Shown: positions 10,471-55,163, counted from the stretch's first letter. The stretch is DNA of 57,370 nt from Candidatus Moraniibacteriota bacterium (GCA_023133275.1 JAGLWU010000027.1:1-57370), one strand, 5' to 3'. Translations and numbers: made by a program. The notes: generated by a model from the letters alone, not told the origin.

Positions 10471-10492
10471 AAAAAGTCCGTGCGGCGAGCAC
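10471..10492 (+). repeat. 21-nt GC-rich intergenic motif
   Basis: AAAAAGTCCGTGCGGCGAGCAC, 5 nt after the TPR gene stop and 107 nt upstream of ychF. Confidence 0.8.
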
Positions 10493-10598
10493 TATTTTGA
10501 ATAATGTGCTTTAATAATAGTTAAAGATTAAAAGTGTTTTTTTAAGTTTCGAAATCTAGTTATTGATAGCTAGATACTAATTACTAATAGATAAAATT

Positions 10599-11651
10599 AT
10601 GGCATTGCAAGTTGGAATTGTTGGTTTACCAAATGTGGGGAAGTCGACTTTGTTTAAGGCGATTACTAAAAAAGCGGTGGATATTAATAATTATCCGTTT
10701 TGTACGATTGAGCCGAATGTTGGTGTGGTTGAGGTTCCGGATGAGCGGATGGAAAAATTGAGTAAGCTTTCTGGTTCGCGGAAAATTATTCCGGCGATTA
10801 TTGAGTTTGTGGATATTGCGGGATTGGTTGAAGGTGCGTCGAAGGGTGAAGGTTTGGGAAATAAATTTTTGGCGAATATTCGTGAGGTGGATGCAATTAT
10901 TCAGGTGGTGCGTGTTTTTGAGAATGGAAATATTACGCATGTGCATGATAATGTTGATCCGATGCGAGATATTGAAGTAATTGAAACTGAATTGATGTTG
11001 GCGGATATAACGACGGTTGAGAAAACGATTGCTCGAGTGGAAAAATTAGTTAAAAGTAATGACAAGAATGCAGTTTCTCAATTGGAATTGGTGAAAAAAA
11101 TTCAAGATGCTTTGAATGATGGGAAGTTGGCTCGAACTGTTGAATTTGATTTTGAGCATCAACCGAGTAGTCAGATTATTGGGGAGATGAGTTTGTTGAC
11201 GATGAAGCCGATTCTTTATGTTTATAATGTTTCTGAATTGGAAGAATCTTTGGATTCTGAATTGGAGAATAGACCGCATGTGAAATTGGATATTAAAATT
11301 GAGGAGGAACTTATGGATTTGAGTGTGGAGGAAGCTACGGAGTTGGAATTGGTTTCTCATTTGAGTGATTTGATTAAGGAGGCTTATGCTTTGTTGGGAT
11401 TGCAGACTTATTTTACGACGGGCGAGGTGGAGACTCGAGCTTGGACGATTAGGGTTGGTGCGACGGCTCCTGAGGCTGGGGCGGCGATTCATACTGATTT
11501 TCAGGAGAAGTTTATTCGGGCGGATGTGGTGCATTGTGATAAGTTGGTTGAATTGGGTTCTTGGGGTAAGGCTCGGGAGACTGGTGATTTGCAGACGGTG
11601 GGGAAGGATTATGTGATGGTGGATGGTGATGTTGTTGAGTTTAGGGTTTAA
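10599..11651 (+). CDS. ychF: Ribosome-binding ATPase YchF (Obg-family)
   Basis: G1 motif GIVGLPNVGKSTLF, a central coiled-coil insertion and a C-terminal TGS domain. Internal antisense ORFs are artefacts. Confidence 0.9.
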   Translation: MALQVGIVGLPNVGKSTLFKAITKKAVDINNYPFCTIEPNVGVVEVPDERMEKLSKLSGSRKIIPAIIEFVDIAGLVEGASKGEGLGNKFLANIREVDAIIQVVRVFENGNITHVHDNVDPMRDIEVIETELMLADITTVEKTIARVEKLVKSNDKNAVSQLELVKKIQDALNDGKLARTVEFDFEHQPSSQIIGEMSLLTMKPILYVYNVSELEESLDSELENRPHVKLDIKIEEELMDLSVEEATELELVSHLSDLIKEAYALLGLQTYFTTGEVETRAWTIRVGATAPEAGAAIHTDFQEKFIRADVVHCDKLVELGSWGKARETGDLQTVGKDYVMVDGDVVEFRV

Positions 11652-11665
11652 CAATTTTTTGGAAA

Positions 11666-11706
11666 ATAAAAAGAGCGACCTCTGAGGTGGATCGCTCGTA
11701 GTTTTC
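11666..11706. terminator. Bidirectional terminator hairpin
   Basis: GAGCGACC…GGATCGCTC stem. The sequence CGACCTCTGAGGTGGATCG recurs at 18909-18929. Confidence 0.55.
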
Positions 11707-11730
11707 GGATGAAAATAATCTTATGGCTTT

Positions 11731-11997
11731 TTAGCCGTTGTGGATTTGTCTGCCAGTTTTTTTCTTTTGTGTTATGGAGGAAAAAAGCTCGTGGAGAGAT
11801 GTGCCATTCATTGTGACTTTATTGAATTTGACGGTGTAAGTATTCCTCTTTTTTGTAACATTCAGGTGTTTTCCTCCTTGCACATTACAAGTTACAGTGA
11901 CGAAATTTGTATTAAAATCGTCGACGTTAGCTTTGCCGAAGAAATCATTAATTGTTTGTCTAATTTTCAGATACTCAGTTCCAGAAAAGTTAGTCAT
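11731..11997 (-). CDS. Hypothetical small protein (88 aa)
   Basis: On the minus strand with a GGGG RBS about 8 nt upstream of ATG. Ends at the bidirectional terminator. The overlapping + frame 11740..12015 has no start signals. Confidence 0.35.
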   Translation of the reverse strand: MTNFSGTEYLKIRQTINDFFGKANVDDFNTNFVTVTCNVQGGKHLNVTKKRNTYTVKFNKVTMNGTSLHELFSSITQKKKTGRQIHNG

Positions 11998-12162
11998 TGT
12001 ATTCCCCTTTTATAGAAAATTTATTTTTTTTAGGGTTTTTATTTGGTTATTTTTGCTAACCAAAACCTAATAAATAATTTTACATCATCATCATCATTTT
12101 AGCAAGCTAAATTTTTGTGATAAACTTAAAAAAGATAAGTTATAAAAATAATTCATAAAATC

Positions 12163-14367
12163 ATGAAAAAAAGAATAATAATTTTGGGAGTAATAATCTT
12201 AATAATAATCGCTTCAGTTTGGGCAGGGCTAAAGTTTTTTAAAAAACAAATAATTACTTTTGAAACAGTGAAAATAATCTCTTTCGATTTAACAAAAAAC
12301 AGTCACGTAAAAGATGAATCAGTCGCATCAGGAACAATTATTTCCAAAGACGGATTAGTCCTAACCAATCATCACGTAGTAACAGACGAAAACGAAGAAA
12401 ATTATGAAGTGTTTGGAATTTGCATTGTTGAAGACGAAGAGAAAAAACCAAATTGCACGTACACCGCATCTTTGATCGCAAAAAATGAAAGTTTAGATAT
12501 CGCTTTGTTACAAATAAATGACAAAGATATTTTTAGTGAAGATGTTAAAAATTTTAACTATTTAGATTACAAAGGCAAAAAAATTGGAATGGATGAGGAG
12601 GTAAATGTAATCGGTTTTCCGGTGATCGGAGGAAAAACAATTACTTCAACGCAAGGACAAATTAGTGGTTACGAAGAAAAAGAAGGGACTAAATTTTTAA
12701 AAATAGATGCAAAGATTGATCAGGGAAATTCTGGCGGAACGGTAAAAAATTCTCAAGGGAAGTTTGTGGGTGTGCCATCTTTTTTGAAAAGTAATTATGA
12801 GACGTTGGGTTACATTATTCCCTTGGAGGCGGTGCGGGATTTTATTGAAGAAAATGTTGAAAAAGATTCAGAAAAAGATGAAATGGCAATTGATTTGTTA
12901 AATAAGTTTTTGCAGAAAAAATATGATGCGGAAGAAAATCGGATTTATCGTTCTAGCTTTTATCCATATTTTGAAGTAAATATTCCAGAGGTTTGGGAAG
13001 TTGAGTATGTTAATGCGGAAAGTATTTTTTTGAAACAGATAATTAGTGGTAATGATTTAGTATTTTCAATAAGAATGGGGCGAGGTAGTTTTGATTTACC
13101 ACAAGAATATATTAATATTAATTTAGAACGAATAGAAAAAAATAAACATCAGTTAAAAAATTACAACAGAAAAGATCTTAAATTTAACGAATTTGATGGA
13201 TTTAAAATTGAGTCTGAAATGATGGGTGAAAAAAGAGCTATTTTTGTAGGAATAAGAGAAAATGCATTATTGTCTTATAATTATAGTTATTCTGTGGAAA
13301 TTGAAAGTGAAAGTAAAGAAATGATTAAGGAAATTTTAGATTCCATGACTTTTTTAGATAAAGAAAATGATACTGAAAAAAATAAAAGGCAGGGATTTAA
13401 CAAAAATCCAAAAGCCAGTATTGAAACTTTTGATAGTTTTTATATTTCTTATATTGATAATAATATAGAAGATCAAGATTTATTATTTTATATCACTTCT
13501 CCAGATTTTGTTGAAATGAAATTTCAGATTTCTGAGAAGTTTTTACCGAGAGATTTTTGGAACATGTCGGAGGAAGAAATTTTTGATAAACGTTTGCAAG
13601 GATTATCTCGAACTTACGCTATAACGGACAAGTATAAAAATATTCAAATAAATGGAATGAAAGGTTTTGGATTCACTTATTCCTACATTTTTGATGATGT
13701 AAAAAAGCCGCACAAAGTTACTCAAATTTTTCTTTTCAAAAATAACAAAGAAGTTATAGAAATTATTTTTGACGATTTAGAAAAAAATCACGATGAAAAT
13801 ATTAAAACTTTTGTGAAAACCATTAGTACTTTTAAATATGAAAATAATGAGGGTGAAACTGTTTTGCCTCAGTTTAAAGCAATTTATAATGATTTGAAAA
13901 ATTATTTGTATGAAAGTGAAATTGGTAGTTTGATTAATCATGGAATTTTGGATTTTGAAGGAGAAAGTTTTATGCCAGAAAAAAGTATTTTAGGTAAAGA
14001 AGTTTTATTTTTTATTTTAAAAAGCAAAGTTTTTATTGAAAAAGGTAGAAATTCAACGAAAACTTTGGATGCGATTAAGATTGAAGGATTTTTTGGTTAT
14101 GCTGAAAGCAAAAAAATTATTGACACATCATTTAATCAAGAAGGAAATATTAATTTGGGTAGTGCGTTGAAAATAATGTGTAAAGTTTATGAATTGCCAG
14201 TTTGGGAGCCACCTTATGTCATTGAGGAAAACCTGCCTTATTTTAACAGGTGGTCTTCTATGAATGTATCAGTTAGCGTAGGTCGGAATGAGGTTTTGAC
14301 TAGAGGTAAGTTTGCAGCGGTTTTATATTATTTCATGCAGTCGGCGGGAGAGCGAAGGGATTTTTAG
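12163..14367 (+). CDS. Membrane-anchored trypsin-like (S1) serine protease with a ~500-aa C-terminal extension of unknown function
   Basis: N-terminal TM, catalytic triad context TNHHVV, DIALLQI and DQGNSGGTV. No PDZ domain. The C-terminal two-thirds has no recognisable motif. Confidence 0.65.
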   Translation: MKKRIIILGVIILIIIASVWAGLKFFKKQIITFETVKIISFDLTKNSHVKDESVASGTIISKDGLVLTNHHVVTDENEENYEVFGICIVEDEEKKPNCTYTASLIAKNESLDIALLQINDKDIFSEDVKNFNYLDYKGKKIGMDEEVNVIGFPVIGGKTITSTQGQISGYEEKEGTKFLKIDAKIDQGNSGGTVKNSQGKFVGVPSFLKSNYETLGYIIPLEAVRDFIEENVEKDSEKDEMAIDLLNKFLQKKYDAEENRIYRSSFYPYFEVNIPEVWEVEYVNAESIFLKQIISGNDLVFSIRMGRGSFDLPQEYININLERIEKNKHQLKNYNRKDLKFNEFDGFKIESEMMGEKRAIFVGIRENALLSYNYSYSVEIESESKEMIKEILDSMTFLDKENDTEKNKRQGFNKNPKASIETFDSFYISYIDNNIEDQDLLFYITSPDFVEMKFQISEKFLPRDFWNMSEEEIFDKRLQGLSRTYAITDKYKNIQINGMKGFGFTYSYIFDDVKKPHKVTQIFLFKNNKEVIEIIFDDLEKNHDENIKTFVKTISTFKYENNEGETVLPQFKAIYNDLKNYLYESEIGSLINHGILDFEGESFMPEKSILGKEVLFFILKSKVFIEKGRNSTKTLDAIKIEGFFGYAESKKIIDTSFNQEGNINLGSALKIMCKVYELPVWEPPYVIEENLPYFNRWSSMNVSVSVGRNEVLTRGKFAAVLYYFMQSAGERRDF

Positions 14368-14391
14368 AATTCATTTTTTTTGAATAATTAA

Positions 14392-15549: not shown

Positions 15550-15578
15550 CAGTTTTAAATCGTTAATTACAAATTAAA

Positions 15579-15651
15579 GGGTCATTAGCTCATCTGGTAG
15601 AGTACATCCATGGCATGGATGAGGTGGTCGGTTTGAGTCCGACATGATCCA
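15579..15651 (+). tRNA. tRNA-Ala (anticodon GGC)
   Basis: Cloverleaf by eye: acceptor GGGTCAT/ATGATCC with the G3:U70 Ala identity pair, D-arm GCTC/GAGT, anticodon stem CATCC/GGATG with loop ATGGCAT (GGC), T-arm GTCGG-TTTGAGT-CCGAC. CCA is not encoded. Confidence 0.85.
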
Positions 15652-15783
15652 CAAAAATATAATTTTTATTTTTTAGCACTTCTTTAATTTTTTTAGCTGA
15701 TTAAGACTAAATATTGATACAAAATTATTTTTTCCAACTTTGTCAGAAATGTTGTATAATAAAAGTAAATTAAAAACAAAAAT

Positions 15784-17560: not shown

Positions 17561-17586
17561 TGTACTCAATGCACGGGCTTTTTGGC
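17561..17586 (-). repeat. Degenerate copy of the 21-nt motif, reverse orientation
   Basis: GTACTCAATGCACGGGCTTTTTGG against the reverse-complement consensus GTGCTCGCCGCACGGGCTTTTT. Confidence 0.45.
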
Positions 17587-19738: not shown

Positions 19739-19761
19739 CAAAAAGTCCGTGCGGCGAGCAC
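19739..19761 (+). repeat. 21-nt GC-rich intergenic motif
   Basis: CAAAAAGTCCGTGCGGCGAGCAC, 68 nt upstream of murJ. Confidence 0.8.
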
Positions 19762-23848: not shown

Positions 23849-23885
23849 TTTGATAAGTTTTTCTACTACTTTATTAATTTAAAAG

Positions 23886-24060
23886 TTTTATGATTTTCTG
23901 TAGGGGATTCTTCACTTCATAAATTTTTTTACAAAAAATTTATTACGTTCAGAATGACTGGTAATTTGAATGACAGGAGACTTTAATGACAATAAATGTT
24001 ACAGAGAATTTTTAGAATTTCGAAAAAGGTTAGATGGTGAAAAGCCTGTGCGGCGAGCAC
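23886..24060 (+). repeat. Composite intergenic repeat element, copy L1 (core module plus terminal 21-nt motif)
   Basis: Core GGGGATTCTTCAC, hairpin ATAAATTTTTTTACAAAAAATTTAT, CGTTCAGAATGACT (23903-23958). ATGACA sub-repeats. Ends GAAAAGCCTGTGCGGCGAGCAC at 24039-24060. Confidence 0.75.
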
Positions 24061-26598: not shown

Positions 26599-26622
26599 GT
26601 GCTCGCCGCACGGGCTTTTTTG
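26599..26622 (-). repeat. 21-nt GC-rich intergenic motif, reverse orientation
   Basis: GTGCTCGCCGCACGGGCTTTTTT, the reverse complement of AAAAAAGCCCGTGCGGCGAGCAC. Confidence 0.8.
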
Positions 26623-27755: not shown

Positions 27756-27786
27756 GTAGAGAGATGTAGCAGTGCTACGTCTCTAC
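27756..27786. repeat. Imperfect 31-nt palindrome in the divergent promoter region
   Basis: GTAGAGAGATGTAGCAG|TGCTACGTCTCTAC, with 7-bp and 6-bp arms around a small bulge. Confidence 0.5.
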
Positions 27787-28489: not shown

Positions 28490-28518
28490 TGTAGGGGTTT
28501 GCCAGTGGCAAACCCCTA
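28490..28518. repeat. Perfect 29-nt GC-rich palindrome
   Basis: GTAGGGGTTTGCCA-G-TGGCAAACCCCTAC, with 14-bp perfect arms. Confidence 0.7.
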
Positions 28519-28640
28519 CGAATGTGGTGAATTTTTTTATAATTTTTTACTATTTGTAGGAACTGGTTTTATAATCTATTCCTGCGAGACATTTGGGTTT
28601 CACAGTTTTTTTTGGGGATTATGGAATTAATTTTGTGTTT

Positions 28641-28700
28641 AAAAAGCCCGTGCGGCGAGCCTGTCTGTTGTCTCGTCGACAGACACGGCAGACAGACACA
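28641..28700 (+). repeat. 21-nt motif copy followed by a GACAGAC-rich quasi-palindromic tract
   Basis: AAAAAGCCCGTGCGGCGAGC, then CTGTCTGTTGTCTCGTCGACAGACACGGCAGACAGACAC. Confidence 0.75.
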
Positions 28701-30850: not shown

Positions 30851-31023
30851 TCTATGATTCTCTGTGGGGGGATTCTTCACTGCGTAATTTTGTTTCACAA
30901 AATTACTTCGTTCAGAATGACAGTAAACTTTGAATGACAGAAAATTCAGAATGATAATAAACTTTTAGAATTTTAAACAAGAGGTCATGACCCCTTGTTC
31001 AGAAAAGCCCGTGCGGCGAGCAC
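30851..31023 (+). repeat. Composite intergenic repeat element, copy L2
   Basis: Core at 30867-30922, in which the hairpin reads GTAATTTTG-TTTCA-CAAAATTAC. ATGACAG sub-repeats. Palindrome AACAAGAGGTCATGACCCCTTGTT (30976-30999). Motif GAAAAGCCCGTGCGGCGAGCAC (31002-31023). Confidence 0.75.
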
Positions 31024-37120: not shown

Positions 37121-40100
37121 TTGTTTATAGATTTCGCAGTGGTTTTGTGGTATTATTTAGTTATGGAAAGAAATAAACTTAAAAAGTTTTTGAAAGTATT
37201 GGGTTATCAACCTCTTGATGGAGAGGTTGGTTTTTGGTTTAAAAAATATAATAATCATAATGATTATCAAATTATAGTTAAGGTTAATGATAATTTAAGA
37301 AATTCTAAAATTGATTGGGGAAATAAAATAAAAATTGGTAGAAAAAGTACCTCTAATTTTTCGCAAAATGAAACTTTTGTTGTTTTTGAATGTGTAAATA
37401 GATTATTAGAAAATGGAAATAAACCAGAAAGTTTAGTTTTAGAAAAAGAATGGAAGCTTGGTCATAAAGGAAAGGGATTTTTAGATATTCAGGTTTTAGA
37501 TGAAAGTGGAAAGAGCTTTTTGATGATTGAATGTAAGACTTTTGGTAAGGAGTACGATAAAGCTAAGAATGATACTGAAAAAGATGGAGGTCAGTTATTT
37601 GGATATTTCATTCAAGAAAGAAATACTAAATATATTTGTTTATATTCTTCTATTTTTGAGAATAATAAAATAAAATCTTTTAGTGATATTATAGTTGTTA
37701 ATAAAGAAATAAGAGGTTCTGAAAATAGTCGAGACGCTTTTGATTCTTGGCATCCTCAGATTTGGGAATCTAGGGGTGTGTTTGCTGTTGATGGAGTAAA
37801 ATTTAGAGGAATTGTTAAAGGGAATAAAGAAAATGATTTAGTGGACTTAACTGAAAAAGATGGAGGTAATATTTATAATCGTTTTGCTGAAATATTAAGA
37901 AAAAATGTTGTTTCTGATAAAACAAATGCCTTCAATAAAATTTTTAATTTATTTCTTTGTAAAATCGTTGATGAATTTGAGACAAGAAAAGGAAATGAAT
38001 ATGAATTTCAGTGGAAAGATGGAGAGAGTAATGAAGATGTTTTAATGCGTTTAAATGATTTGTATAAAAGAGGAATGTCCAGATATTTAGATTTAAAGAT
38101 TGAGGCTGTGTCAGAAAAGGAATTTGATGAGGCACTTGAAAACTTTGAATACAATAAATCAAAAATTGAAAAATTATTTATTCGACAAAAATTATATTCA
38201 GGAAATGAATTTGCATTTAAAGAGGTTTTTGATAAAGAAAGTTTTAATGAAAATTGTTTTGTAGTTAGGGAGGTTGTTAAGCTTCTAGAAAAATATAGAA
38301 TAAAATACACAACCAAACAGCAATTTTTAGGAGATTTTTTTGAACGACTTTTGAACACGGGAATTAAACAAGAGTCAGGTCAGTATTTTACACCCACTCC
38401 AATTGCATCTTTTATTTGTAAATCTATACCTTTTAAGAAAATTATTGAGGATAAAAATAAAAGAGAAAAACCTTATTTTTTGCCTTATATTATAGATTAT
38501 GCTTCAGGAGCTGGACATTTTCTTACTGAGGCTATGGAAGAAGTTGATCATCATATTAAAGACATTGATGGAGATTGGGTTTTATGTGGAGAAAAACATA
38601 AAAAAGAATTTCTTAAAAATAAAGATAATTTTGATTGGGCGAGTGAATATATTTATGGTATTGAAAAAGATTATAGATTAGCAAAAACAACAAAAATCAG
38701 CACTTTTTTAAATGGTGATGGAGATGCTAATGTTATCAGGGGAGATGGTCTTGATAGTTTTGAGAAAAGTGATGTTTATAAAGGAAAGTTAAAAGAATTT
38801 AATTTTGAAAATGAAAATAGAAAATTTGATATTTTAGTTGCAAACCCACCTTATTCTGTTGATGGGTTTAAAACAACATTAAGAGATGGTAAAGATTCTT
38901 TTGAGCTTTATCCTTATCTTACAGATCAGAGTAGTGAAATTGAGTGTCTTTTCATTGAAAGGGCTAAACAGTTACTCACAGAGGGAGGTATTGCAGGTAT
39001 TATTCTGCCATCTAGCATTTTAACCAATACGAGAATTTACTCTAAGACTAGGGAGATCATTTTTAAGTATTTTAATATTATAGGTATTACGGAATTAGGA
39101 CGTAATACTTTTATGAAGACACCTACAACTACGGTTGTTTTATTCTTAAAAAGAAAAAATAATAAAGATTTTGATGGGATTTTTAAAAAAGTGAAGCAAA
39201 GTTTTGATAATCAAAAAGACATTACTATAAATGGAATTGAAAAAGCTTACTCAAAATATTTGTCTTATGTTTGGCGTGATGAAGATAGTCAAGTTAATTT
39301 TGCAGATTATAAAACTTTAATTAATAAAAATCCAAATAAAAAAATTAAAAATCATGAGATTTTTCAAGAGTATGAAAAAAAGATAAAAGCTAAAGATAAG
39401 CAAGAGAAGTGGCAAAAGATTCATGATTTAGAAAAAGAAAAAATAACTTATTTTTTGAATGTTTATAATCAAAAAGTTGTTTTAATAAAAACTGGTGAGA
39501 AAAAAGAAGAGAAGAAATTTTTGGGTTACGAGTTTTCAGATAGACGAGGAGGTGAAGGAATTCATTCACTTCAAAGAGGTGAGGACATTAGTAAATGCAC
39601 TCAGCTTTTTGATGCTAAAAATCTTTACAATTCAGAAAAGGCTAGTACTTATATTTTGGAGGCTCTTGAGGGAAAAAAAGAAAGAAAAATTCCAGAAAAA
39701 TTAAAGGAAAATATTAGTCGTGTTGATTTGATTGATATGATGACTTTTGATCGTATTGATTTTGAGAAAAGTATTAATTTGAATGTTAAAAAAAAGATTA
39801 AAATTAAGAGTAAATGGGATTTTGTAAAATTAGAAACTGTTCTTTTTGAACAGCCTAAATCTAAAATAAAAGTAAAAACAGTCAATGACACAGAAAATGG
39901 AATTTATAATTTTTTTACCAGCGGTGAATCTATTTTAAATTTTAATAAATTTTTAGTAGATGGGAAAAATATATATCTTTCTACGGGAGGCAATGCCATT
40001 ATTAAATTTTTTGATGGAAAAGCAAGTTATTCTACAGATACTTTTGTTATACAAAGTAAAAACGAAAATTTAATAAAAACAAAATTAATATTTTATTTTA

Positions 40101-40837
40101 TTGAATATATAATTAAAGATATTGATAAATTTTATTTTAAAGGACAGGGATTAAGACATTTGCAAAAATCTGATTTTAGAGAAATAAAAATTCCTCTCCC
40201 ACCAATAGAAATTCAACAAAAAATTGTGGATGTGATTGAGTCTTTGGAGAAAAAAGAGAATGAGATAAAAAGGTCAATTAAAGTTATGAGGCAAGAAATT
40301 AGTAAAATTATTAATAATATTTCAGGGGAAGAAAAAACTTTAGAGTCTATTTGTGAAGATATTTTTGCTGGAGGAGATAAGCCAGAAAAATTTTCATATG
40401 AAAAAACAGAGGAATTAAATATTCCAATTTATGCTAATGCAGTAAAAAACAATGGATTATATGGCTATACAAATGTTTATAGAGTCAATAAGCCTTCTGT
40501 GACAGTTTCGGCAAGAGGTACAATTGGTTTTCCTATTGCAAGAAATGAAAAATTTTATCCTATAGTAAGATTAATTGTTATTATTTCTGGCGAACGATTA
40601 AAAAATAAATATTTGGAAATCGTTTTAAAAAATGCAAACATAGTTTCGAGTGGGACAAATATTCCACAATTAACGGTTCCAATGGTTCAGAATATGAAAG
40701 TTCCTTTTTTGCCTTTTTCTAAACAACAAAAAATAGTTTCTCAAATTGAAAAGATTGAAAATAAAATTTCGAAATTAGAAAAAGAATTGGAAGAAGTTCC
40801 AAAGAAAAAAGAAAAAATATTGAAAAAATATTTGTAA
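37121..40837 (+). CDS. Single-polypeptide restriction-modification enzyme (Type IIB/IIG-like). N-terminal PD-ExK nuclease, gamma-class N6-adenine methyltransferase, and two HsdS-like target-recognition domains.
   Basis: Nuclease motif LDIQVLDESGKSFLMIECK. MTase motif I (X) GQYFTPTPIASFI and motif IV LVANPPYS. The C-terminal half has two TRD-like repeats separated by coiled-coil conserved regions (…LKIPLPPIEIQQKIV…, …VPFLPFSKQQKIV…). No helicase/ATPase. Start is TTG at 37121 with a GGGGAG RBS; the alternative is ATG at 37163. Confidence 0.75.
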   Translation: MFIDFAVVLWYYLVMERNKLKKFLKVLGYQPLDGEVGFWFKKYNNHNDYQIIVKVNDNLRNSKIDWGNKIKIGRKSTSNFSQNETFVVFECVNRLLENGNKPESLVLEKEWKLGHKGKGFLDIQVLDESGKSFLMIECKTFGKEYDKAKNDTEKDGGQLFGYFIQERNTKYICLYSSIFENNKIKSFSDIIVVNKEIRGSENSRDAFDSWHPQIWESRGVFAVDGVKFRGIVKGNKENDLVDLTEKDGGNIYNRFAEILRKNVVSDKTNAFNKIFNLFLCKIVDEFETRKGNEYEFQWKDGESNEDVLMRLNDLYKRGMSRYLDLKIEAVSEKEFDEALENFEYNKSKIEKLFIRQKLYSGNEFAFKEVFDKESFNENCFVVREVVKLLEKYRIKYTTKQQFLGDFFERLLNTGIKQESGQYFTPTPIASFICKSIPFKKIIEDKNKREKPYFLPYIIDYASGAGHFLTEAMEEVDHHIKDIDGDWVLCGEKHKKEFLKNKDNFDWASEYIYGIEKDYRLAKTTKISTFLNGDGDANVIRGDGLDSFEKSDVYKGKLKEFNFENENRKFDILVANPPYSVDGFKTTLRDGKDSFELYPYLTDQSSEIECLFIERAKQLLTEGGIAGIILPSSILTNTRIYSKTREIIFKYFNIIGITELGRNTFMKTPTTTVVLFLKRKNNKDFDGIFKKVKQSFDNQKDITINGIEKAYSKYLSYVWRDEDSQVNFADYKTLINKNPNKKIKNHEIFQEYEKKIKAKDKQEKWQKIHDLEKEKITYFLNVYNQKVVLIKTGEKKEEKKFLGYEFSDRRGGEGIHSLQRGEDISKCTQLFDAKNLYNSEKASTYILEALEGKKERKIPEKLKENISRVDLIDMMTFDRIDFEKSINLNVKKKIKIKSKWDFVKLETVLFEQPKSKIKVKTVNDTENGIYNFFTSGESILNFNKFLVDGKNIYLSTGGNAIIKFFDGKASYSTDTFVIQSKNENLIKTKLIFYFIEYIIKDIDKFYFKGQGLRHLQKSDFREIKIPLPPIEIQQKIVDVIESLEKKENEIKRSIKVMRQEISKIINNISGEEKTLESICEDIFAGGDKPEKFSYEKTEELNIPIYANAVKNNGLYGYTNVYRVNKPSVTVSARGTIGFPIARNEKFYPIVRLIVIISGERLKNKYLEIVLKNANIVSSGTNIPQLTVPMVQNMKVPFLPFSKQQKIVSQIEKIENKISKLEKELEEVPKKKEKILKKYL

Positions 40838-42950: not shown

Positions 42951-43034
42951 TTGTGAATGTTATTTTTTGTTATATTTATTATACACTGGAATAGATTTTT
43001 AGATAGGTAGATGAGTAGATTTTTAGATTTGTAG

Positions 43035-43055
43035 AGACATTGCATTGCAATGTCT
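43035..43055. promoter_or_regulatory. Perfect 21-nt palindrome in the recG/cupin divergent promoter region (candidate operator)
   Basis: AGACATTGCA-T-TGCAATGTCT. Flanked upstream by two direct repeats TAGATTTTTAGAT (42992-43004 and 43016-43028). Confidence 0.45.
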
Positions 43056-43537: not shown

Positions 43538-43559
43538 TAAAAGTCCGTGCGGCTAGCAC
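43538..43559 (+). repeat. 21-nt GC-rich intergenic motif (variant)
   Basis: AAAAGTCCGTGCGGCTAGCAC. Confidence 0.75.
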
Positions 43560-45720: not shown

Positions 45721-46107
45721 ATGAAAATTATTTTGAATAGATGATTTGTTTATAGAATTGAAAAAGTTTTTTGAGAATTTTTAAATTTGTAGATATTGTT
45801 GAAAATTTTGTTAAAAAAACACAATCATTTAATGGGTAAAGTAGGTAGCTGTAATGTTAATAATATGAAGAAATTTTTACGAAAAATTGATTTGCCGATT
45901 TATTTTTTTGAATAGGTTTTATTGAGATAAGGTTTTTCTGTTGGAATTTATTGGGAAAAGTGGTAATTATTTTAATGCTTGTAAAAAAATATTTCCATCC
46001 AGCTGATATTTAATTAAAATTTTAAACAAATTATTTTCTTTTTTTATAAAAAACAAAATAATTTTTTAGAGTTGACGCCCAATTTAATTGGGTGATGATA
46101 TGAGTTG

Positions 46108-46155
46108 AACAAGGGGTCATGACCCCTTGTTCAAAAAAGCCCGTGTGGCGAGCAC
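46108..46155 (+). repeat. 24-nt perfect palindrome plus 21-nt motif
   Basis: AACAAGGGGTCATGACCCCTTGTT (46108-46131) immediately followed by CAAAAAAGCCCGTGTGGCGAGCAC (46132-46155). Confidence 0.8.
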
Positions 46156-46255
46156 AAAATTAGTTTAAAAATAAGTCAAAAAAATTCTTAAAATTTTACA
46201 ACAAACTTGCATTATGTTATAATAAAATGGAAGTTAAAAATAAATATAAAACTTT

Positions 46256-46567
46256 ATGGAATGTCAAAATAATGAAAAATCAACGATCATTAGCACTTTG
46301 TCTGAGATGGTTGGATCAATGTTAAAGGTTGTGCAGACAGGTATTGTAGAGCGAATAGAAAAAGTTGCTAGTCGTATTGTTCGGGATGTGGTGGGAGTAA
46401 TTATTTTTGCTTTACTGGGCTTGGTGGGATTCACTTTTTTTCTGGTTGGAGCGTCAATTTGGTTGGGTGATTTTTCAGGATTAGGATTAGGATTTGGGTT
46501 AATGTCGACAGGTGGAGTAGTTTTTATTCTTGCTTTATTGATAGGGTTAATTCAAAGAATTAAATAA
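46256..46567 (+). CDS. Hypothetical small membrane protein (2 TM)
   Basis: Two Gly-rich hydrophobic helices. Lies 26 bp upstream of the ElaB-like gene. Confidence 0.4.
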   Translation: MECQNNEKSTIISTLSEMVGSMLKVVQTGIVERIEKVASRIVRDVVGVIIFALLGLVGFTFFLVGASIWLGDFSGLGLGFGLMSTGGVVFILALLIGLIQRIK

Positions 46568-46593
46568 AATTTTAATTAAATTAATATAAAAAT

Positions 46594-46872
46594 ATGGGAA
46601 ATAAATGTGATAATGAAGAAGGCATGAAAAAGCATTATTGTAATGCTAGGGAAAAAGCTGAAGAAATTAAAGAGATAACTTCTGAAAAGATGGAAAAAGT
46701 AAAAGAAATGACTTCTGAAAAAGTTGAGGATGTTAAAGAGAAAGCTCAAGAAGTGAGAGAAAATACTCAAGATTATATCAAAAAAAATCCTGAAAAATCT
46801 GTTAGTATTGCGGCTGGAGTTGGTGCGGCTGTTGGTGTTGCTTTTGCGTTTTTGTTTAGGCGTAGGAAATAG
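46594..46872 (+). CDS. ElaB/YqjD/DUF883-family tail-anchored protein
   Basis: Charged coiled-coil N-terminus. C-terminus NPEKSVSIAAGVGAAVGVAFAFLFRRRK matches the DUF883 C-terminal anchor (ENPW.SVGIAAGVG…LL.RR). Confidence 0.5.
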   Translation: MGNKCDNEEGMKKHYCNAREKAEEIKEITSEKMEKVKEMTSEKVEDVKEKAQEVRENTQDYIKKNPEKSVSIAAGVGAAVGVAFAFLFRRRK

Positions 46873-46896
46873 ATTGAACTTGAATTTTATAAAATG

Positions 46897-46928
46897 AAAC
46901 CTTTGCTTTTGTGGAGGTTTTTTTTATT
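46897..46928 (+). terminator. Putative terminator
   Basis: AAACCT…AGGTTT stem followed by TTTTTTT. Confidence 0.45.
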
Positions 46929-47046
46929 GCTTTTAAATTATTTTAAGATTCATTTTTTGTAGATTTTTTTATATTTCTTGCATGTTGTAGTGCAAGGTCT
47001 TTACATTGAAAAATAAAATAATTTTTTTAGGAGGATAAGATTGGGA

Positions 47047-47284
47047 GTTTTATATTTTTCTTTGGGGGATTCTTCGCTACATAAATTTTTTTACAAAAAA
47101 TTTATTACGTTCAGAATGACAGATAAACTTTTGTAGTGAACGGTTTCAAACCGTTCACTACTGAAATTACCACGTTATCTTTGGGTTGAAAATTTTCAAC
47201 CCCTACATTGCAATAACAGTAATTTTTTAGAATTTCAACAAGGGGTCATGACTCCTTGTTCAGAAAAGCCCGTGCGGCGAGCAC
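47047..47284 (+). repeat. Composite intergenic repeat element, copy L3 (most elaborate: core, three perfect palindromes, terminal motif)
   Basis: Core 47065-47121 with hairpin ATAAATTTTTTTACAAAAAATTTAT. Palindromes TAGTGAACGGTTTCAAACCGTTCACTA (47134-47160), GGGTTGAAAATTTTCAACCC (47183-47202) and AACAAGGGGTCATGACTCCTTGTT (47237-47260). Motif at 47261-47284. Confidence 0.8.
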
Positions 47285-47378
47285 AATTATTTTTTTGATA
47301 CTTTTTAATATCTTTGAGAAATGATATAGTGGATGTAGTGAACTTAAAATGTGTTTTTTTAAATTTTAAAATAAAATT

Positions 47379-48116
47379 ATGATAAATCTTGAAAATAAAA
47401 AAGTAATTATTACGGGGGCAGCTGCGGGGATTGGTCGGGCTACGGCGGTGAAATGTGTTGAACATGGGGCGGATGTTTTGGTGATTGATATTAATGAGAA
47501 TGGTTTAGTTAAATTGCAAAAAGAACTTGGCGAAGATAAAGTTAAGATTTTTAATTTTGATATTTCTGATTTGGGTAAAATTAAGGATTTTTTTGTGCAA
47601 CTTAGAAAGGATGATATTAAAATTGATTGTTTGGTGAATAATGCGGGCATTTATTTGGGTAAATCTGTTTTGGATTATTCTGATGAGGATATTGCGAAAG
47701 TTATGGCGATAAATTTGATAGCACCAATTTATTTTTCTAAGGAATTTGCTCGGGATAAAATGAATGGTAAAAAGCAGGGCGTAATTGTAAATATTGCTTC
47801 TGTTTCGGGTGAAGCAGGAACTTCGGAGTCAGTTTATGGTGCAACTAAAGGTGGTCTCCTTGGTTTGACAAAAAGTAATGCGATTGATTTTTCTCCGTAT
47901 GTTCGGGTGAATGCGGTGGCTCCAAGTGTTACTAAAACTGCTTTGGTGAAAAATATTCCAGAAGAGCGGTTGAAAATGCACGAAAAACATAATTTGATTA
48001 AGGAATGGATTGAGCCTGAGGATATTGGGAATGCGGTTTTGTTTTTGTTGTCGGATGTTTCGGGGCATTGTACGGGGATGACTTTGGATGTTAATAATGG
48101 GCGTTATTTGAGGTAG
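47379..48116 (+). CDS. Short-chain dehydrogenase/reductase (FabG-like)
   Basis: TGAAAGIGRATA Rossmann motif, NNAG, and the S…YGATKGG catalytic Ser/Tyr/Lys. Confidence 0.8.
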   Translation: MINLENKKVIITGAAAGIGRATAVKCVEHGADVLVIDINENGLVKLQKELGEDKVKIFNFDISDLGKIKDFFVQLRKDDIKIDCLVNNAGIYLGKSVLDYSDEDIAKVMAINLIAPIYFSKEFARDKMNGKKQGVIVNIASVSGEAGTSESVYGATKGGLLGLTKSNAIDFSPYVRVNAVAPSVTKTALVKNIPEERLKMHEKHNLIKEWIEPEDIGNAVLFLLSDVSGHCTGMTLDVNNGRYLR

Positions 48117-48179
48117 ACTTTTGTTTTTGAGTATGTTATTGTTACGTGAAGTTAAATTTAATTTTTTATTTGAAAATAT

Positions 48180-49256: not shown

Positions 49257-49285
49257 TTTTTAGTTTTTTCATCTTTTAAATTTTA

Positions 49286-49318
49286 GGCAAGGAAATAAAA
49301 ATCCTTGTCTATTTTTTA
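49286..49318 (+). terminator. Rho-independent terminator
   Basis: CAAGGA-AATAAAAA-TCCTTG followed by TCTATTTTTT. Confidence 0.5.
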
Positions 49319-49399
49319 TTAAATCTCGTGTTGCCTTTACAAAAAAACATGCGTATAATAAAAAGAGAATTAAAAACAATACAATAAAACATCACAATT

Positions 49400-50554: not shown

Positions 50555-50643
50555 TTATTAAATTTTAATTATTAGAAATAAAAAAAGGACTTTCCGAAGA
50601 AAATTCTGTAAAAGTGTCAGATTCAGTTGAATCTGTTTAAGGT

Positions 50644-50808
50644 TTAAGTAAGAAATGTAATTAATAAAAAAATAATAATTGCGACAAGTGATGATGTTTT
50701 TTTATGCCCCCATAAAAGAACAAGTATTAAGAACAGATTTTCTTTAAAGAGAATGAAAAGAAAAAATAATAGAATAAACACAATTAATATCGTAGTTTTT
50801 TTAATCAT
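50644..50808 (-). CDS. Unannotated small hydrophobic protein (54 aa)
   Basis: Minus-strand ATG with a GAGGTG RBS 6 nt upstream. Sequence MIKKTTILIVFILLFFLFILFKENLFLILVLLWGHKKTSSLVAIIIFLLITFLT, two predicted TM helices. Not in the ORF track (under 60 aa). Confidence 0.3.
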   Translation of the reverse strand: MIKKTTILIVFILLFFLFILFKENLFLILVLLWGHKKTSSLVAIIIFLLITFLT

Positions 50809-50890
50809 CAGTACACCTCACTTTATTTTTGTTGAAGAGTTTTATGTTTAAAAAAAAGTACTATGTGTAATTTATCAAATTATTATAAAT

Positions 50891-52540: not shown

Positions 52541-52560
52541 TGAAAATTAAAAAATTATGT

Positions 52561-52589
52561 TTGACTTCTTCTTCTTCTTCTGATACGAT
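52561..52589 (+). promoter_or_regulatory. Putative promoter whose 17-nt spacer is a (TTC)5 trinucleotide repeat
   Basis: TTGACT (52561-52566), spacer TCTTCTTCTTCTTCTGA, TACGAT (52584-52589). About 70 nt upstream of the 52659 gene. Confidence 0.35.
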
Positions 52590-52658
52590 GAAAAGTTAAC
52601 GAAATTATTCGTTCGACATGTTTTTTTATCTACAATTATATATCAGGAGATAATTCTA

Positions 52659-53078
52659 ATGGAAGCTACTCAATTTGTTGTTTCTAGTACCTTTAAAAGA
52701 GGTGGTTTCTTAGGTTTTTTTTGCGACGTTTATTATTGCGAAGCTCGGATAATAAAAAGCGAGCCTATTTATAAAAAATTTTTTGGAGAAAAAGTAGGAG
52801 GTGGTGCTGTACAAAGAAAAGTAAATTTAGAGATAATAAGTGTCATTTGGAGTGCTTCGCGTCAGAACTCTCAGGAACTCAGTTTTTATGTTCCTGTTGA
52901 AGATTGTAATGCTGAAAGAATGTTTGAATCTGTCCAATTAGTGATTGAGCAGTTAAATCAAAAAAAAGAAAATTTACTTAGATCAATGCCTGATGCAAAT
53001 TGTAATGATCTAAGTAATTTAATTATATTTCTTTCTGGAATTAAATTACAAGATATTTTTGTAACACCAGTTACTTAG
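52659..53078 (+). CDS. Hypothetical protein (139 aa)
   Basis: AGGAGA RBS 7 nt upstream. No recognisable motif. Confidence 0.45.
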   Translation: MEATQFVVSSTFKRGGFLGFFCDVYYCEARIIKSEPIYKKFFGEKVGGGAVQRKVNLEIISVIWSASRQNSQELSFYVPVEDCNAERMFESVQLVIEQLNQKKENLLRSMPDANCNDLSNLIIFLSGIKLQDIFVTPVT

Positions 53079-53089
53079 AGGAAATAAAT

Positions 53090-53140
53090 AAAGGTCGTTT
53101 CGCAATCTGTACGCGGGATGACCTTTTGAACTTTTTTATT
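53090..53140 (+). terminator. Putative terminator
   Basis: AAAGGTC…GACCTTT 7-bp stem with a 23-nt loop, followed by TGAACTTTTTT. Confidence 0.4.
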
Positions 53141-53195
53141 TTCTAAGTTTTTAAAAGTGCTATAATAAAATTAGTCTTTATTAAAAAAAACAACT

Positions 53196-54320
53196 ATGAA
53201 CAAGAAATATCTATTTATCATTTTTGGAATAATTACAATCTTTTCATTAAGTGGTTTTTTCGTGTATTCATTTGTTAATGAAAAAAATACAGAAGAACTT
53301 ATTACGTTTGATGAAACAAAAATAGAAGACGAAAATAAATTAACACAAAATGATTTACAAAATTACAACGAAAATATTATTACATCAGCAAATCAAAAAA
53401 ATATTCAAACTGAAATTTCTAATAATTCCGAAGATGAAAATTCTTTACCAATTCTTGACAGCAATAAAAAAACTGAAGAGTTAAAAGACAAAGAATTAAA
53501 TTTAGTGAAAAAAGTCGAAGAAATAAAAACTTACAAATCTTTTAATTTTGTTGTAATAGCCGATTCAGAAAGTTACAAAGCAGCTAGCGGTCATGAAGAA
53601 AAATTTGAAAGTATGTTAGCAAAAACAGTTTCGTACAAACCAGACTTTGTGATTTTTTCGGGTGATTTAATTACGCAGGGCAGTCCAGACAGAACTAAGG
53701 TTGCAAATTTGAAAAAACTAATTAGAAAATATTATAGTAAATTTTACATTACATTTGGCAAGCATGATATTGAATGTGGGGTTCAGTGTGTAGATATTTG
53801 GGAAGATGTATTTTTTAATAAAAAACATGTGGCGGGTGAAAAACGTAAACTTTATTATTCCTTTGATTATGAAAATACGCATTTTGTTTTGTTGTCATCA
53901 GATTATCCCATTAAGCATTCTGTGGATGATGTTCAATTGAAATGGCTAAATGATGATCTTAAAAAAAATGACAAATCGAATATAATCGTTGTGGTACATG
54001 TTCCATCAGTTACTTTTTTCAAAGAGTCAGCGAAGGAGTGTCATGATATGTCTTGCAACGAGACGCAAAGAGTTAAATTGATTAATTTTCTTAAAAAGCA
54101 TAAAGTCGATTTAGTAATTTCTGGGCATGAACACGTTTTTGATCATAAGATTGTTGATGGGATTGATTTTGTGATTGCGGGTGGTGTGGGAAAAAGTAAA
54201 CGGTATAAAGATTCAATGTGGAAGGATAGTTTTTTGCAGATTACTGTTTCTGGAAATAGAATTATTTTGAAGTCTTTTGGAATTGAAGGAGAATTGATTC
54301 GGGAGATAAAGATTAAGTAG
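53196..54320 (+). CDS. Membrane-anchored calcineurin-like metallophosphoesterase
   Basis: N-terminal TM. Metallophosphatase motifs VVIADSE, SGDLITQG, GKHD, VVVHVP and SGHEHVFDH. Confidence 0.6.
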   Translation: MNKKYLFIIFGIITIFSLSGFFVYSFVNEKNTEELITFDETKIEDENKLTQNDLQNYNENIITSANQKNIQTEISNNSEDENSLPILDSNKKTEELKDKELNLVKKVEEIKTYKSFNFVVIADSESYKAASGHEEKFESMLAKTVSYKPDFVIFSGDLITQGSPDRTKVANLKKLIRKYYSKFYITFGKHDIECGVQCVDIWEDVFFNKKHVAGEKRKLYYSFDYENTHFVLLSSDYPIKHSVDDVQLKWLNDDLKKNDKSNIIVVVHVPSVTFFKESAKECHDMSCNETQRVKLINFLKKHKVDLVISGHEHVFDHKIVDGIDFVIAGGVGKSKRYKDSMWKDSFLQITVSGNRIILKSFGIEGELIREIKIK

Positions 54321-54329
54321 GAAATAATC

Positions 54330-54965
54330 ATGAATAAAAAAACTATAATTTTTGATTTTGATGGAACGATTGCGGATACTTTGGATGTTGTTGTGAATAT
54401 TTATAATAAACTTGCTCCTAAATATTTTTGTAAAACTTTAAAAAGAGAGGATGTGGAAATTTTGCGAAATAAAAAATCTCAAGAATTTATGAAAGATTAT
54501 GGAATTTCTAAATTTAAATTACCTTTTTTAGTTTTACATATTAGAAAATATTTGAATGGTGAAATGAAAAATGTTAAACCGATTGATGGAATAATTGAAA
54601 CGTTGAAAGAACTTAAAAATCTTGGTTATAATTTGGGAATCATGACGTCTAATTCAAAAAAGAATGTTGAGAATTTTTTAAAGATAAATAATTTAGATGA
54701 CATTTTTGATTTTGTCTATTCGAGCAAAAATCTTTTTGGAAAAGATAAAGTGATTAAAAAAATTATTAATAAATATTTTTTTGAAAAAGATTTAATTATT
54801 TATGTTGGTGATGAGGTGCGTGATGTTGAGATGTCAAAAAAATTGGGAATTTCTGTTTTAGCGGTTAGTTGGGGTTTTAATTCTAGGGAAATGCTTGAAA
54901 ATGCTGGAGCGGATGTGATTGTGGATAATTCGAGAGAATTGTTAGAGTGTTTGCAAAAATTTTAA
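54330..54965 (+). CDS. HAD-superfamily hydrolase (phosphoglycolate-phosphatase-like)
   Basis: Motif I IIFDFDGTIADT, motif II MTSN, and motif IV GDEVRD. Confidence 0.65.
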   Translation: MNKKTIIFDFDGTIADTLDVVVNIYNKLAPKYFCKTLKREDVEILRNKKSQEFMKDYGISKFKLPFLVLHIRKYLNGEMKNVKPIDGIIETLKELKNLGYNLGIMTSNSKKNVENFLKINNLDDIFDFVYSSKNLFGKDKVIKKIINKYFFEKDLIIYVGDEVRDVEMSKKLGISVLAVSWGFNSREMLENAGADVIVDNSRELLECLQKF

Positions 54966-55011
54966 TTTTTCTACAAAAAATGAAAGGATTTTTCAGGATA
55001 ATATGATTTGA

Positions 55012-55163
55012 TAGTTTTATGATTTTCTGTGGGGGATTCTTTACTTCATAAAATTTTTCTAACGAAAATTTTATTACGTTCAGAATGACAATAAACTGGG
55101 ATAACAAAAATTTTTTAAAATTTCAAAAAATGTTAAATGGTGAAAAGCCCGTGCGGCGAGTAC
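55012..55163 (+). repeat. Composite intergenic repeat element, copy L4
   Basis: Core 55032-55090 with hairpin ATAAAATTTT-TCTAACG-AAAATTTTAT. Ends GAAAAGCCCGTGCGGCGAGTAC (55142-55163). Confidence 0.75.

Follow-up and report, generated by a model that had tools for sequence, protein, structure and literature searches.

A 21-nt GC-rich motif recurs in the intergenic regions of a 57,370-nt stretch of DNA from a Candidatus Moraniibacteriota bacterium (GCA_023133275.1, JAGLWU010000027.1:1-57370), here called the window, and of the metagenome-assembled genome (MAG) Candidatus Moraniibacteriota HOU_bin.0114 (CALNYG01), here called the relative. The motif is a clade-specific dispersed intergenic repeat, set apart from repetitive extragenic palindromes (REPs), miniature inverted-repeat transposable elements (MITEs), uptake signal sequences (USS) and Chi sites. 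Its orientation tracks replication, other repeats adjoin it on its 5′ side, and it keeps its place at orthologous sites. In the reading that we favor, with moderate confidence, the motif is the polar, non-palindromic anchor of an intergenic mosaic akin to bacterial interspersed mosaic elements (BIMEs) and would be read as single-stranded DNA (ssDNA) by an enzyme of the HUH/Y1 kind.

Sequence, shape and distribution of the motif

The core of the motif is an invariant 17-mer, GCCCGTGCGGCGAGCAC, preceded by the prefix AAAA or, in a subfamily, by CATA, in which case (T)ATGTAT always lies directly 5′ of the prefix. The window has about 30% GC and a strongly positive GC skew, and its plus strand holds nearly all genes. 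When it was searched for AAAAGYCCGTGCGGCGAGCAC with at most 3 mismatches, 10 matches were obtained (nine on the plus and one on the minus strand), compared with 0 in 100 dinucleotide-preserving shuffles; together with a degenerate eleventh copy at 17562-17582 (minus, 4 mismatches), this agrees with the at least 11 dispersed copies of the initial annotation. The copies were located where that annotation had placed them, except that their true starts differ by 0-3 nt, and all 11 copies are intergenic, as it had held. For the window and the relative together, intergenic copies number 94 of 98 in sequence that is 82% coding. An alignment of 94 of the 98 copies yields a sharp-edged 21-nt block that is followed by a T-rich stretch at +22 to +32, present in about half of the copies, and preceded by a faint upstream signal. 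The near-100% conservation in the corresponding logo is inflated, since possession of an exact motif was the criterion by which the relative's blocks were retrieved; the window copies, which are free of this bias, lie on average about 1 base from the consensus. Substitutions are scattered and mostly C to T. Concerted evolution, considered on account of a T6 variant found in three window copies and in none of the relative, was dropped as not significant, by a rough estimate, given the C-to-T bias and the 8 C positions. The internal hairpin GTGC-GGCGA-GCAC described initially is present, but it has just 4 bp and, at -5.7 kcal/mol, a stability like that of shuffled sequence (z = -0.27). For the reverse complement, the stem has 5 bp, a G-U pair among them, and runs into UUUU (-6.0 kcal/mol, z = -0.26), and folding with DNA parameters is again shuffle-like (z about -0.1 to -0.3; -0.12 for the forward hairpin).

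The carriers of the motif were sought in a scan that took one genome per species for the exact motif; retrieved sequence blocks or contigs are designated by L-numbers. The relative, whose genes are 77-88% identical to those of the window in nucleotides, has at least 87 copies in at least 57 blocks of 8 kb, all from one genome, in a census biased to blocks with an exact copy. Outside this genome, four isolated exact matches were listed, three of them chance matches in GC-rich genomes. The fourth, L043 (JAGLUC010000165.1), has 29.5% GC, contains both the motif and a composite repeat and is filed as a ‘Methylococcales’ MAG; it is very probably a mis-binned contig of this Moraniibacteriota clade. 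The motif is also borne by L070, whose MurJ is 79% identical in protein. By contrast, relatives with a 64-68% identical DEAD helicase or MurJ had 0 copies in the 10-21 kb sampled from each. The count in relatives that had been proposed thus gives many copies in close relatives and none in the loci sampled at 64-68% protein identity. A Joint Genome Institute (JGI) metagenome scan with the motif gave one match, GC-rich and due to chance. No match was obtained for the whole window in Rfam 15 at gathering thresholds, the sole match of 46000-47400 at E up to 1 being a chance Leu_leader of 19 bits, and blastn of a composite plus motif against a phage collection was likewise empty. The motif is therefore confined to a narrow clade of about four closely related assemblies, and the initial statement that it is no recognized element stands, with no Rfam, phage-collection or literature match. 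The same 21-mer cannot have originated independently at more than 100 sites of a genome with 30% GC; it must have multiplied by copying in the clade's ancestor.

Two of the chance matches in GC-rich genomes, L001:2091 and L062:1175, are complete 8-bp terminator-like hairpins, GCCCGTGC-GGCGA-GCACGGGC. The motif resembles such a hairpin truncated by four bases at its end, a possible clue to where the motif came from.

Repeats adjoining the motif on its 5′ side

The company of the motif is one-sided. The 150 nt on its 5′ side match at least three other places in 51 of 92 copies, compared with 10 of 92 for the 3′ flank (p = 1e-10), and matches to at least ten other places are found for 36 of the 5′ flanks and for two of the 3′ flanks. 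More than half of the motif copies form the 3′ end of a repeat cluster; about 45% stand alone. For the window, composites ending in the motif had been described at four copies, and those at 24040, 31003, 47264 and 55143 do adjoin true repeat families (Table 1). The adjoining repeats, which all abut the motif's A-run, comprise a long hairpin with a GTAG tag, TCTGTAG-GGGATTCTTCAC...CGTTCAGAATGACAG, a set of shorter hairpins (GTAG...CTAC) with several different sequences, the palindrome AACAAGGGGTCATGACCCCTTGTT, and linkers ending in ...AATGGTG. GTAG directly upstream was rejected as a general feature of the motif, as it lies within 60 nt in 16 of 92 copies only. In the 98 flank pairs read by eye, neither an inverted partner nor a direct repeat at the edges, as expected of MITEs, was seen, and no longer parent element ending in the motif appeared in the flanks read.

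The motif also has an internal insertion point. A 20-nt palindrome, CCTGCCTGT(T)CGGCAGACAGG, is inserted exactly between GAG and CAC in at least 11 copies belonging to both prefix subfamilies, and a nested form is found in window copy 28642. This palindrome is itself dispersed; it also occurs at two fixed places in the long hairpin modules, sometimes nested or in tandem.

Persistence of the motif at orthologous sites

The motif occupies the same position in each of the six intergenic regions compared (Table 1), five of the pairs having been found through the relative's exact copy, so that loss of the motif in the relative is undetectable at these. The 3′ flank is homologous in six of six (z = 12-83 over 200 nt in the first five pairs, z = 48 in the L070 pair), while the 200 nt on the 5′ side have no detectable homology in five of six (z at most 1.4) and the remaining pair keeps 28 nt. 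At four orthologous sites a composite is present in just one genome, two per genome. The upstream gene differs at several sites; for example, the tetratricopeptide repeat (TPR) gene of the window is faced by a different open reading frame (ORF) plus a composite in the relative. Judged by its translation, that ORF is NUDIX-like. Between the paired motifs themselves, 9 of 126 positions differ and indels are lacking, whereas the adjoining 60 nt on the 3′ side have 44 differences in 268 aligned positions and 184 gap columns. The motif is a stable anchor, and the DNA 5′ of it turns over.

Orientation relative to replication

Replication arms were assigned from the contig coordinates of the blocks and from GC skew. 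On contig 5 of the relative (CALNYG010000005.1) the skew flips from negative to positive at about 112-120 kb, and the preferred strand of the motif flips with it; on contig 3 (CALNYG010000003.1) the skew flips from positive to negative at about 48-64 kb. At both places gene orientation, motif orientation and GC skew all change sign, and the two switches are a candidate origin and a candidate terminus, respectively, of the relative's chromosome.

Of the 98 copies, 83 (85%) have the motif, as written, on the G-rich (leading) strand and 15 have it on the lagging strand (binomial p = 1.4e-12). Where both flanking genes are leading, 48 copies are leading, co-oriented with the genes, and 6 are lagging; where both are lagging, 6 copies are leading, opposite to the genes, and 1 is lagging. 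Convergent regions hold 12 leading and 4 lagging copies, divergent regions 8 and 3. The polarity follows replication, because the leading fraction is alike between leading-strand genes (89%) and lagging-strand genes (86%) while co-orientation with genes differs between these settings (48 vs 6 and 1 vs 6; Fisher p = 1e-4). Copies without adjoining repeats are equally polar (36:5), whereas hairpin modules unlinked to the motif have no replication polarity (8:8). The polarity is a property of the motif, and it tracks replication, not transcription. The initial annotation had raised an orientation bias relative to downstream genes; the bias is strong, but it is relative to replication. Co-orientation with the gene ending upstream in convergent regions was dropped from consideration, being true by construction. 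The G-rich strand of the parental duplex is the lagging-strand template, which is transiently single-stranded at the fork.

A strand polarity of 85% is reminiscent of sites that mark chromosome polarity, such as Chi, FtsK-orienting polar sequences (KOPS) or Ter; the motif would then be a protein-recognized DNA site of this kind or, alternatively, an uptake sequence for the type IV pilus/competence machinery of the Candidate Phyla Radiation (CPR). The spacing of about 1 motif per 5 kb in the window, conservation in close relatives with absence from loci sampled in more distant ones, and the break of inter-genome homology on the 5′ side of the motif all fit such a role; in the RecBCD system, Chi stimulates recombination on its 5′ side. 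However, known Chi and KOPS sites are 5-8 nt long and lie within genes, whereas the motif has 17-21 invariant bases and is intergenic in 94 of 98 copies. A short Chi- or KOPS-like core was rejected as well: 6- to 8-mers of the motif outside full copies are as frequent as expected or owe their presence to Ala-Ala codons (GCG-GCG), GCGGCGA, for example, standing on the sense strand in frame 0 in 14 of 19 cases. Uptake sequences (USS and DNA uptake sequences, DUS) occur about once per kb, about five times more densely than the motif, in both orientations equally and commonly in genes, unlike an intergenic motif with an 83:15 bias. Copies interrupted by the palindrome, moreover, persist. A chromosome-polarity or uptake site is therefore improbable.

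The motif could alternatively be a decayed selfish remnant, that is, the slowest-decaying piece (e.g., a former end) of an extinct MITE or insertion sequence (IS) with no present role, in which case the repeats beside it would just occupy the same permissive intergenic space. Its restriction to one clade, the repeat-dense intergenic regions of a lineage with several IS families, the scattered, mostly C-to-T substitutions and the persistence of palindrome-interrupted copies agree with this. Passive co-residence, however, would not be expected to produce the polarity (83:15) or the one-sidedness (51 vs 10; 36 vs 2), the single internal position that is hit repeatedly speaks for recognition, all six compared sites have retained the motif, free of indels and less substituted than its flanks, and the flanks read show no inverted or direct repeats or longer parent element. 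Random orientation, copies inside coding sequences and lack of conservation in relatives, named initially as the signs of such a remnant, are not the pattern of a polar repeat with 94 of 98 copies intergenic and all six compared sites kept. We regard the remnant as unlikely, though by no means negligible.

Gene context and transcription

Downstream of eight of the 11 window copies lies a co-oriented start codon, 43-106 nt from the motif end; the placement upstream of plus-strand starts reported initially thus holds, but the count had been seven and the range 45-110 nt. As to the other three, the copies at 43539 and 26599 (minus) lie in convergent regions, and that at 17562 (minus) is antisense to both neighbors. 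Among all copies the distance from motif to co-oriented start codon is tight, with a median of 67 nt, while that from upstream stop codon to motif is broad (median 179 nt, range 4-806).

This placement is what speaks for a regulon operator or promoter element, to which a transcription factor or alternative sigma factor would bind, co-regulating the downstream genes. However, the genes flanking the motif are functionally unrelated (ychF, murJ, an extracytoplasmic function (ECF) sigma factor, a DEAD helicase, a transporter, dedA, HIT, a cupin, a short-chain dehydrogenase/reductase (SDR), lepA, pilB/pilM and others). Around the motif, -10-like hexamers have a flat distribution with no phasing, in keeping with the variable distance noted initially, and the spacing to recognizable -35 boxes ranges from 20 to 40 nt. 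The motif is densest in convergent regions, which lack promoters (1.47 copies per kb, compared with 1.14 in tandem and 0.59 in divergent regions, or 0.32, 0.23 and 0.17 copies per intergenic region); these hold 16 copies, and 12 copies are antisense to both flanking genes. The site is furthermore non-palindromic and much longer than typical operators. In view of the missing phasing, the unrelated genes and the peak in promoter-less regions, the motif is not an operator or promoter element, nor probably a 5′ leader, and the regulon suggested at the outset retains next to no probability.

Promoters recognizable by eye sit 20-40 nt downstream of the motif and before the start codon (copies at 19741, 31003, 46135 and 55143), which places the motif outside the mRNA of the downstream gene. 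A T-run 3′ of the motif has no association with gene context. A role as 5′-leader RNA for the downstream gene is unlikely, and the RNA motif that had been proposed is disfavored by the recognizable promoters lying between motif and gene and by the lack of an Rfam match. Strong -35/-10 pairs in the window (46195-46256 and 55190-55227) end 3-8 nt before the starts at 46256 and 55227 (lepA), which suggests that these two genes may have leaderless or near-leaderless mRNAs.

Another reading is a host transcription element, namely a weak, roughly bidirectional terminator, an insulator or a 3′-end stabilizer that would be placed between transcription units and whose uniformity would stem from a once-mobile origin. 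The reverse complement, GCTCG-CCGCA-CGGGC followed by TTTT, fits the minimal terminator pattern of the scan, and the 3′ flank is T-rich at +22 to +32. In 14 of 28 copies with a convergent 3′ neighbor, the reverse-complement motif lies 2-41 nt from the stop codon of that neighbor. The density peak in convergent and minimum in divergent regions, the position upstream of recognizable promoters, the retention at orthologous sites and the complete 8-bp terminator hairpins of the two chance matches point the same way. On the other hand, a stem of 4 bp (forward) or 5 bp with a G-U pair (reverse), of about -6 kcal/mol and z about -0.3, is feeble in a genome that has far stronger canonical terminators, including ones downstream of 43539 and 26599 and upstream of 28642 and 47264. 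A hairpin needs no 17 invariant bases, and just one compensatory change has been seen (L043:6062). The T-richness on the 3′ side is independent of gene context, and the orientation tracks replication, not transcription. As the primary role of the motif, a terminator or insulator therefore appears doubtful, with a small but real share of the probability.

Transposases of the lineage and a possible mechanism

The window has no transposase gene, so that the initial remark on the absence of IS elements is correct for this stretch; it does not extend to the lineage, as the relative bears IS1, ISL3 and rve-type transposases in several near-identical copies and three Y1_Tnp (HUH) families that pass the Pfam cut-off.

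The first Y1 gene, RAYT#1 (L011 7222-7764, minus), has homologues named ‘REP element-mobilizing transposase RayT’. Its ATG is preceded at 34 nt by a GTAG REP, GTAGGGGCGTATTGCCATACGCCCCTAC, and its stop codon is followed at 15 nt by an exact motif. The L069 homologue (63% identity) stands amid five copies of this GTAG REP, and the motif is missing there; a homologue in L068 (65% identity) has neither. The motif was therefore rejected as the REP of RAYT#1: GTAGGGGCGTATTGCAATACGCCCCTAC, which is present 5′ of RAYT#1 and persists around the L069 homologue without the motif, is probably the cognate repeat. The second family is an IS200-like element found twice in L055 (4600-5800 and 6650-7850, minus) with 97% identity, one copy being frameshifted. 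It encodes a Y1 transposase and has hairpins at both ends, whose loops are mutually reverse-complementary. The segment shared by the two copies starts at the left hairpin, ends 54 nt past the motif and takes in roughly 10 codons at the start of the next gene; it is a segmental duplication without a defined end, and the motif was rejected as an end of this element. The extension of the duplicated segment past the right hairpin suggests read-through or one-ended mobilization. The third family (L052 1290-1982 and L035 2327-2980, both minus) consists of proteins of 217-230 aa that are 95-97% identical. The similarity reaches from about 15 nt before the ATG to the stop codon, with no shared ends, and because it stops at the bounds of the ORF, the unit copied is essentially the ORF alone. 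The motif is near just one of the copies, and this family was likewise not linked to it.

In the mechanism that would underlie the reading as a mosaic anchor, the motif, copied in the ancestor of a small Moraniibacteriota group and stable in place since, would be recognized as single-stranded DNA at the replication fork, where one of the three Y1/HUH transposase families of the lineage, which include a RayT-type RAYT, might use it as a preferred landing, cleavage or terminal site for REP-type units. Recognition of ssDNA at the fork could account both for the polarity and for the one-sided growth of the mosaic, and a weak bidirectional terminator or insulator effect, owing to the A-run, the short GC hairpin and the T-run, might be a by-product.

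Several observations weigh against this proposal. The motif adjoins Y1 genes at three of four independent loci, which is not significant in a sample chosen for motifs, and no enzyme is tied to it, the probable cognate REP of RAYT#1 being GTAGGGGCGTATTGCAATACGCCCCTAC and the L069 locus lacking the motif. The unlinked hairpin modules are not polar, which indicates that a Y1 mechanism alone does not give polarity. Known Y1 substrates are hairpins, whereas the motif is nearly devoid of secondary structure, and known Y1 targets are 4-5 nt long, which leaves 17-21 invariant bases unexplained. That the motif is retained at all six comparable sites, and has changed less than its flanks, is no less compatible with a host function than with a selfish landing pad. 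Finally, neither gain nor loss of the motif itself was seen, and mobility follows from copy number and clade restriction only.

In a more far-reaching reading, the motif would be a dispersed recombination site oriented with replication, and the chromosome would carry an array of about 200-250 ‘att-like’ pads. A HUH/Y1 or other enzyme would read these as ssDNA on the lagging-strand template and insert or exchange REP-type units, occasionally whole genes, at their 5′ edge. We consider such an array quite unlikely. Were it true, the pads would define the bounds of variable DNA in reduced CPR genomes and would be kept by selection and not by a mobility of their own.

Coordinates of the motif copies and other features

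The features of the window are compiled in Table 1 together with their orthologous counterparts. Further features of the window include tandem repeats of 3 x 102 nt at 9921-10278, within the TPR-protein gene (9357-10466), and, at 37121-40837 (plus), a gene for a 1238-aa fusion of N6_Mtase, Eco57I and two Methylase_S domains, i.e., a single-chain restriction-modification enzyme of the type IIG kind.

Table 1. Motif copies, composites and related repeats in the window, with orthologous motif sites and examples from the relative
Feature	Position	Strand	Description	Orthologous site
Motif copy (T at position 6)	10472..10492	+	exact; 5 nt past TPR gene stop, 106 nt before ychF ATG; solo, no adjoining repeat	L014:3708; 3′ flank z = 11.6, 5′ flank z = 1.4
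Degenerate motif copy	17562..17582	-	4 mismatches; between pilB and pilM, antisense to both	L016:7095 (-), exact
Motif copy (T6)	19741..19761	+	exact; divergent intergenic region; 67 nt before murJ ATG	L070:85; kept upstream of murJ
Composite repeat	23884..24039	+	abuts 5′ edge of motif; GTAG-tagged long hairpin GGATTCTTCAC...TTCAGAATGAC (23905-23958) and linker ...TTTTAGAATTTCGAAAAAGGTTAGATGGTG; repeat families D2, D5, D7, D8	
Motif copy	24040..24060	+	1 mismatch; 3′ end of composite, downstream of ECF sigma gene; 43 nt to start codon	
Motif copy	26599..26619	-	exact; convergent region; 130 nt past stop of minus-strand transporter gene; canonical terminator further on	
Split motif copy	28642..28699	+	37-nt nested palindromic insertion (28660-28696) between GAG and CAC, which accounts for its two ‘mismatches’; 105 nt to start codon	
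Composite repeat	30868..31002	+	GTAG-type hairpin module (30870-30921) and palindrome AACAAGAGGTCATGACCCCTTGTT (about 30976-30999)	missing at L019 site
Motif copy	31003..31023	+	exact; 60 nt before HIT gene ATG	L019:234; homology starts exactly at motif
Motif copy (T6, T16)	43539..43559	+	1 mismatch; convergent region, 41 nt past cupin gene stop; no 5′ composite	L031:6305, with 5′ composite
Motif copy	46135..46155	+	1 mismatch; palindrome AACAAGGGGTCATGACCCCTTGTT (about 46108-46131) directly 5′; 100 nt to start codon	
Composite repeat	47046..47263	+	hairpin module (47067-47120), two GTAG-tagged REP-like hairpins (47133-47161; 47183-47206, minus), palindrome (about 47237-47260)	
Motif copy	47264..47284	+	exact; 3′ end of large composite; 94 nt before SDR gene ATG	
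Composite repeat	55013..55142	+	hairpin module 55034-55089 and linker ...AAAAAATGTTAAATGGTG	
Motif copy	55143..55163	+	1 mismatch; 63 nt before lepA ATG; promoter-like TTGTAA-17-TATACT between motif and ATG	L039:343, exact, without composite
Palindrome CCTGCCTGT(T)CGGCAGACAGG, example sites	28660-28696; relative L028:399, L012:7021, L029:3066, L039:5048, L049:720, L050:2170, L052:1213, L024:1828, L031:7933			
REP-like hairpins, several families	27756-27786, 28491-28519, 43031-43055, 47133-47161, 47183-47206 (-); relative L011:~7800-7830, L014:3620-3647		5′ GTAG and 3′ CTAC	

A comparison of near-identical assemblies gave no polymorphism, as L073 and L074 match the window at 100%. Logan contigs from two other runs, SRR13892600 and SRR13892601, are 100% identical to it and end at 23929, in a composite repeat, and at 28517, in a GTAG hairpin; as these ends lie inside the repeats, the repeats fragment short-read assemblies. 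Repeats of this kind break assemblies and, as in the case of L043, can expose mis-binned contigs.

Comparison with known systems

The motif is real and unusual without being revolutionary: it belongs to the intergenic-repeat-mosaic kind, of which none has been found described in this phylum, and a limited full-text literature search returned no description of REP/RAYT-type repeat systems in CPR/Patescibacteria. Genomes of this group are usually called small and streamlined; the present lineage has a rich set of intergenic repeats, with nested palindromes and GTAG REPs, in addition to several IS and three Y1 families, and the motif at the center of this set sits exactly where the genomes differ. 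If the motif is the recognition site of an ssDNA enzyme, it would offer a simple system for the study of REP-type target choice and would be relevant to changes of gene content at fixed points of reduced genomes.

Intrinsic terminators have a GC-rich stem of 5 bp or more that runs straight into a U-tract and exceeds background in stability. They and terminator-doubling repeats (Neisseria DUS pairs, REPs) share with the motif an A-run, a short GC hairpin and a T-run, proximity to stop codons and enrichment in convergent regions. Yet the stem of the motif is far weaker, its sequence rather than its structure is conserved, and its polarity is independent of gene direction.

REPs carry GTAG or GTGG 0-2 nt 5′ of a hairpin with a basal stem of 7-20 paired nt and a loop of 2-5 nt (PMC6006769). 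Neither strand of the motif has GTAG or GTGG, the reverse complement starting with GTGC, and its stems are of 4-5 bp. Like the REPs and REP doublets forming hairpins (REPINs) that are mobilized by REP-associated tyrosine transposases (RAYTs; TnpA-REP), the motif has a high copy number, is intergenic and lineage-restricted, co-occurs with Y1/HUH transposases and is found 15 nt past a RAYT stop codon; it differs from them in forming no doublets and in that the REP of RAYT#1 is apparently another sequence. The initial assignment to a REP/BIME- or MITE-like family is thus apt for a dispersed, clade-restricted repeat amid a REP-type mosaic in a lineage with RAYT/Y1 genes, but the motif itself is no REP, and no MITE features were seen in the flanks read.

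The template of the lagging strand is where Y1 transposases act (PMC6006769). A strand bias linked to replication is a trait that the motif shares with the IS200/IS605 family, an IS200-like element of which is present twice at 97% identity in the relative. The targets of this family, by contrast, measure 4-5 nt and are situated 5′ of an element's left end, and no element bounded by the motif was found.

Some REP families insert into specific repeated targets, as exemplified by GTAG-23, which inserts into small palindromes in Thermomicrobium roseum (Di Nocera 2013, PMC3733652). In both systems a short many-copy sequence takes REP-type insertions at a fixed position, and unoccupied copies exist. 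While the T. roseum targets are short GC-rich palindromes for which a chance origin is possible, the motif is a copied, non-palindromic 21-mer that receives insertions at one edge.

The mosaic character of the sites finally recalls the BIMEs. Enterobacterial BIMEs combine REPs with short conserved non-REP linker motifs, the basic unit being two inverted REPs. The repeats described here likewise form intergenic mosaics of few modules in which GTAG hairpins stand by non-palindromic motifs, the units vary while the site is kept, and the lineage has a RAYT; the 5′ flank is repetitive in 51 of 92 copies, and composites are present in one genome only at four of five orthologous sites. In contrast to the enterobacterial elements, the constant module in this case is a 21-nt GC-rich sequence in a 30% GC genome that also occurs solo (about 45% of copies), always forms the 3′ end of the mosaic and is oriented with replication.

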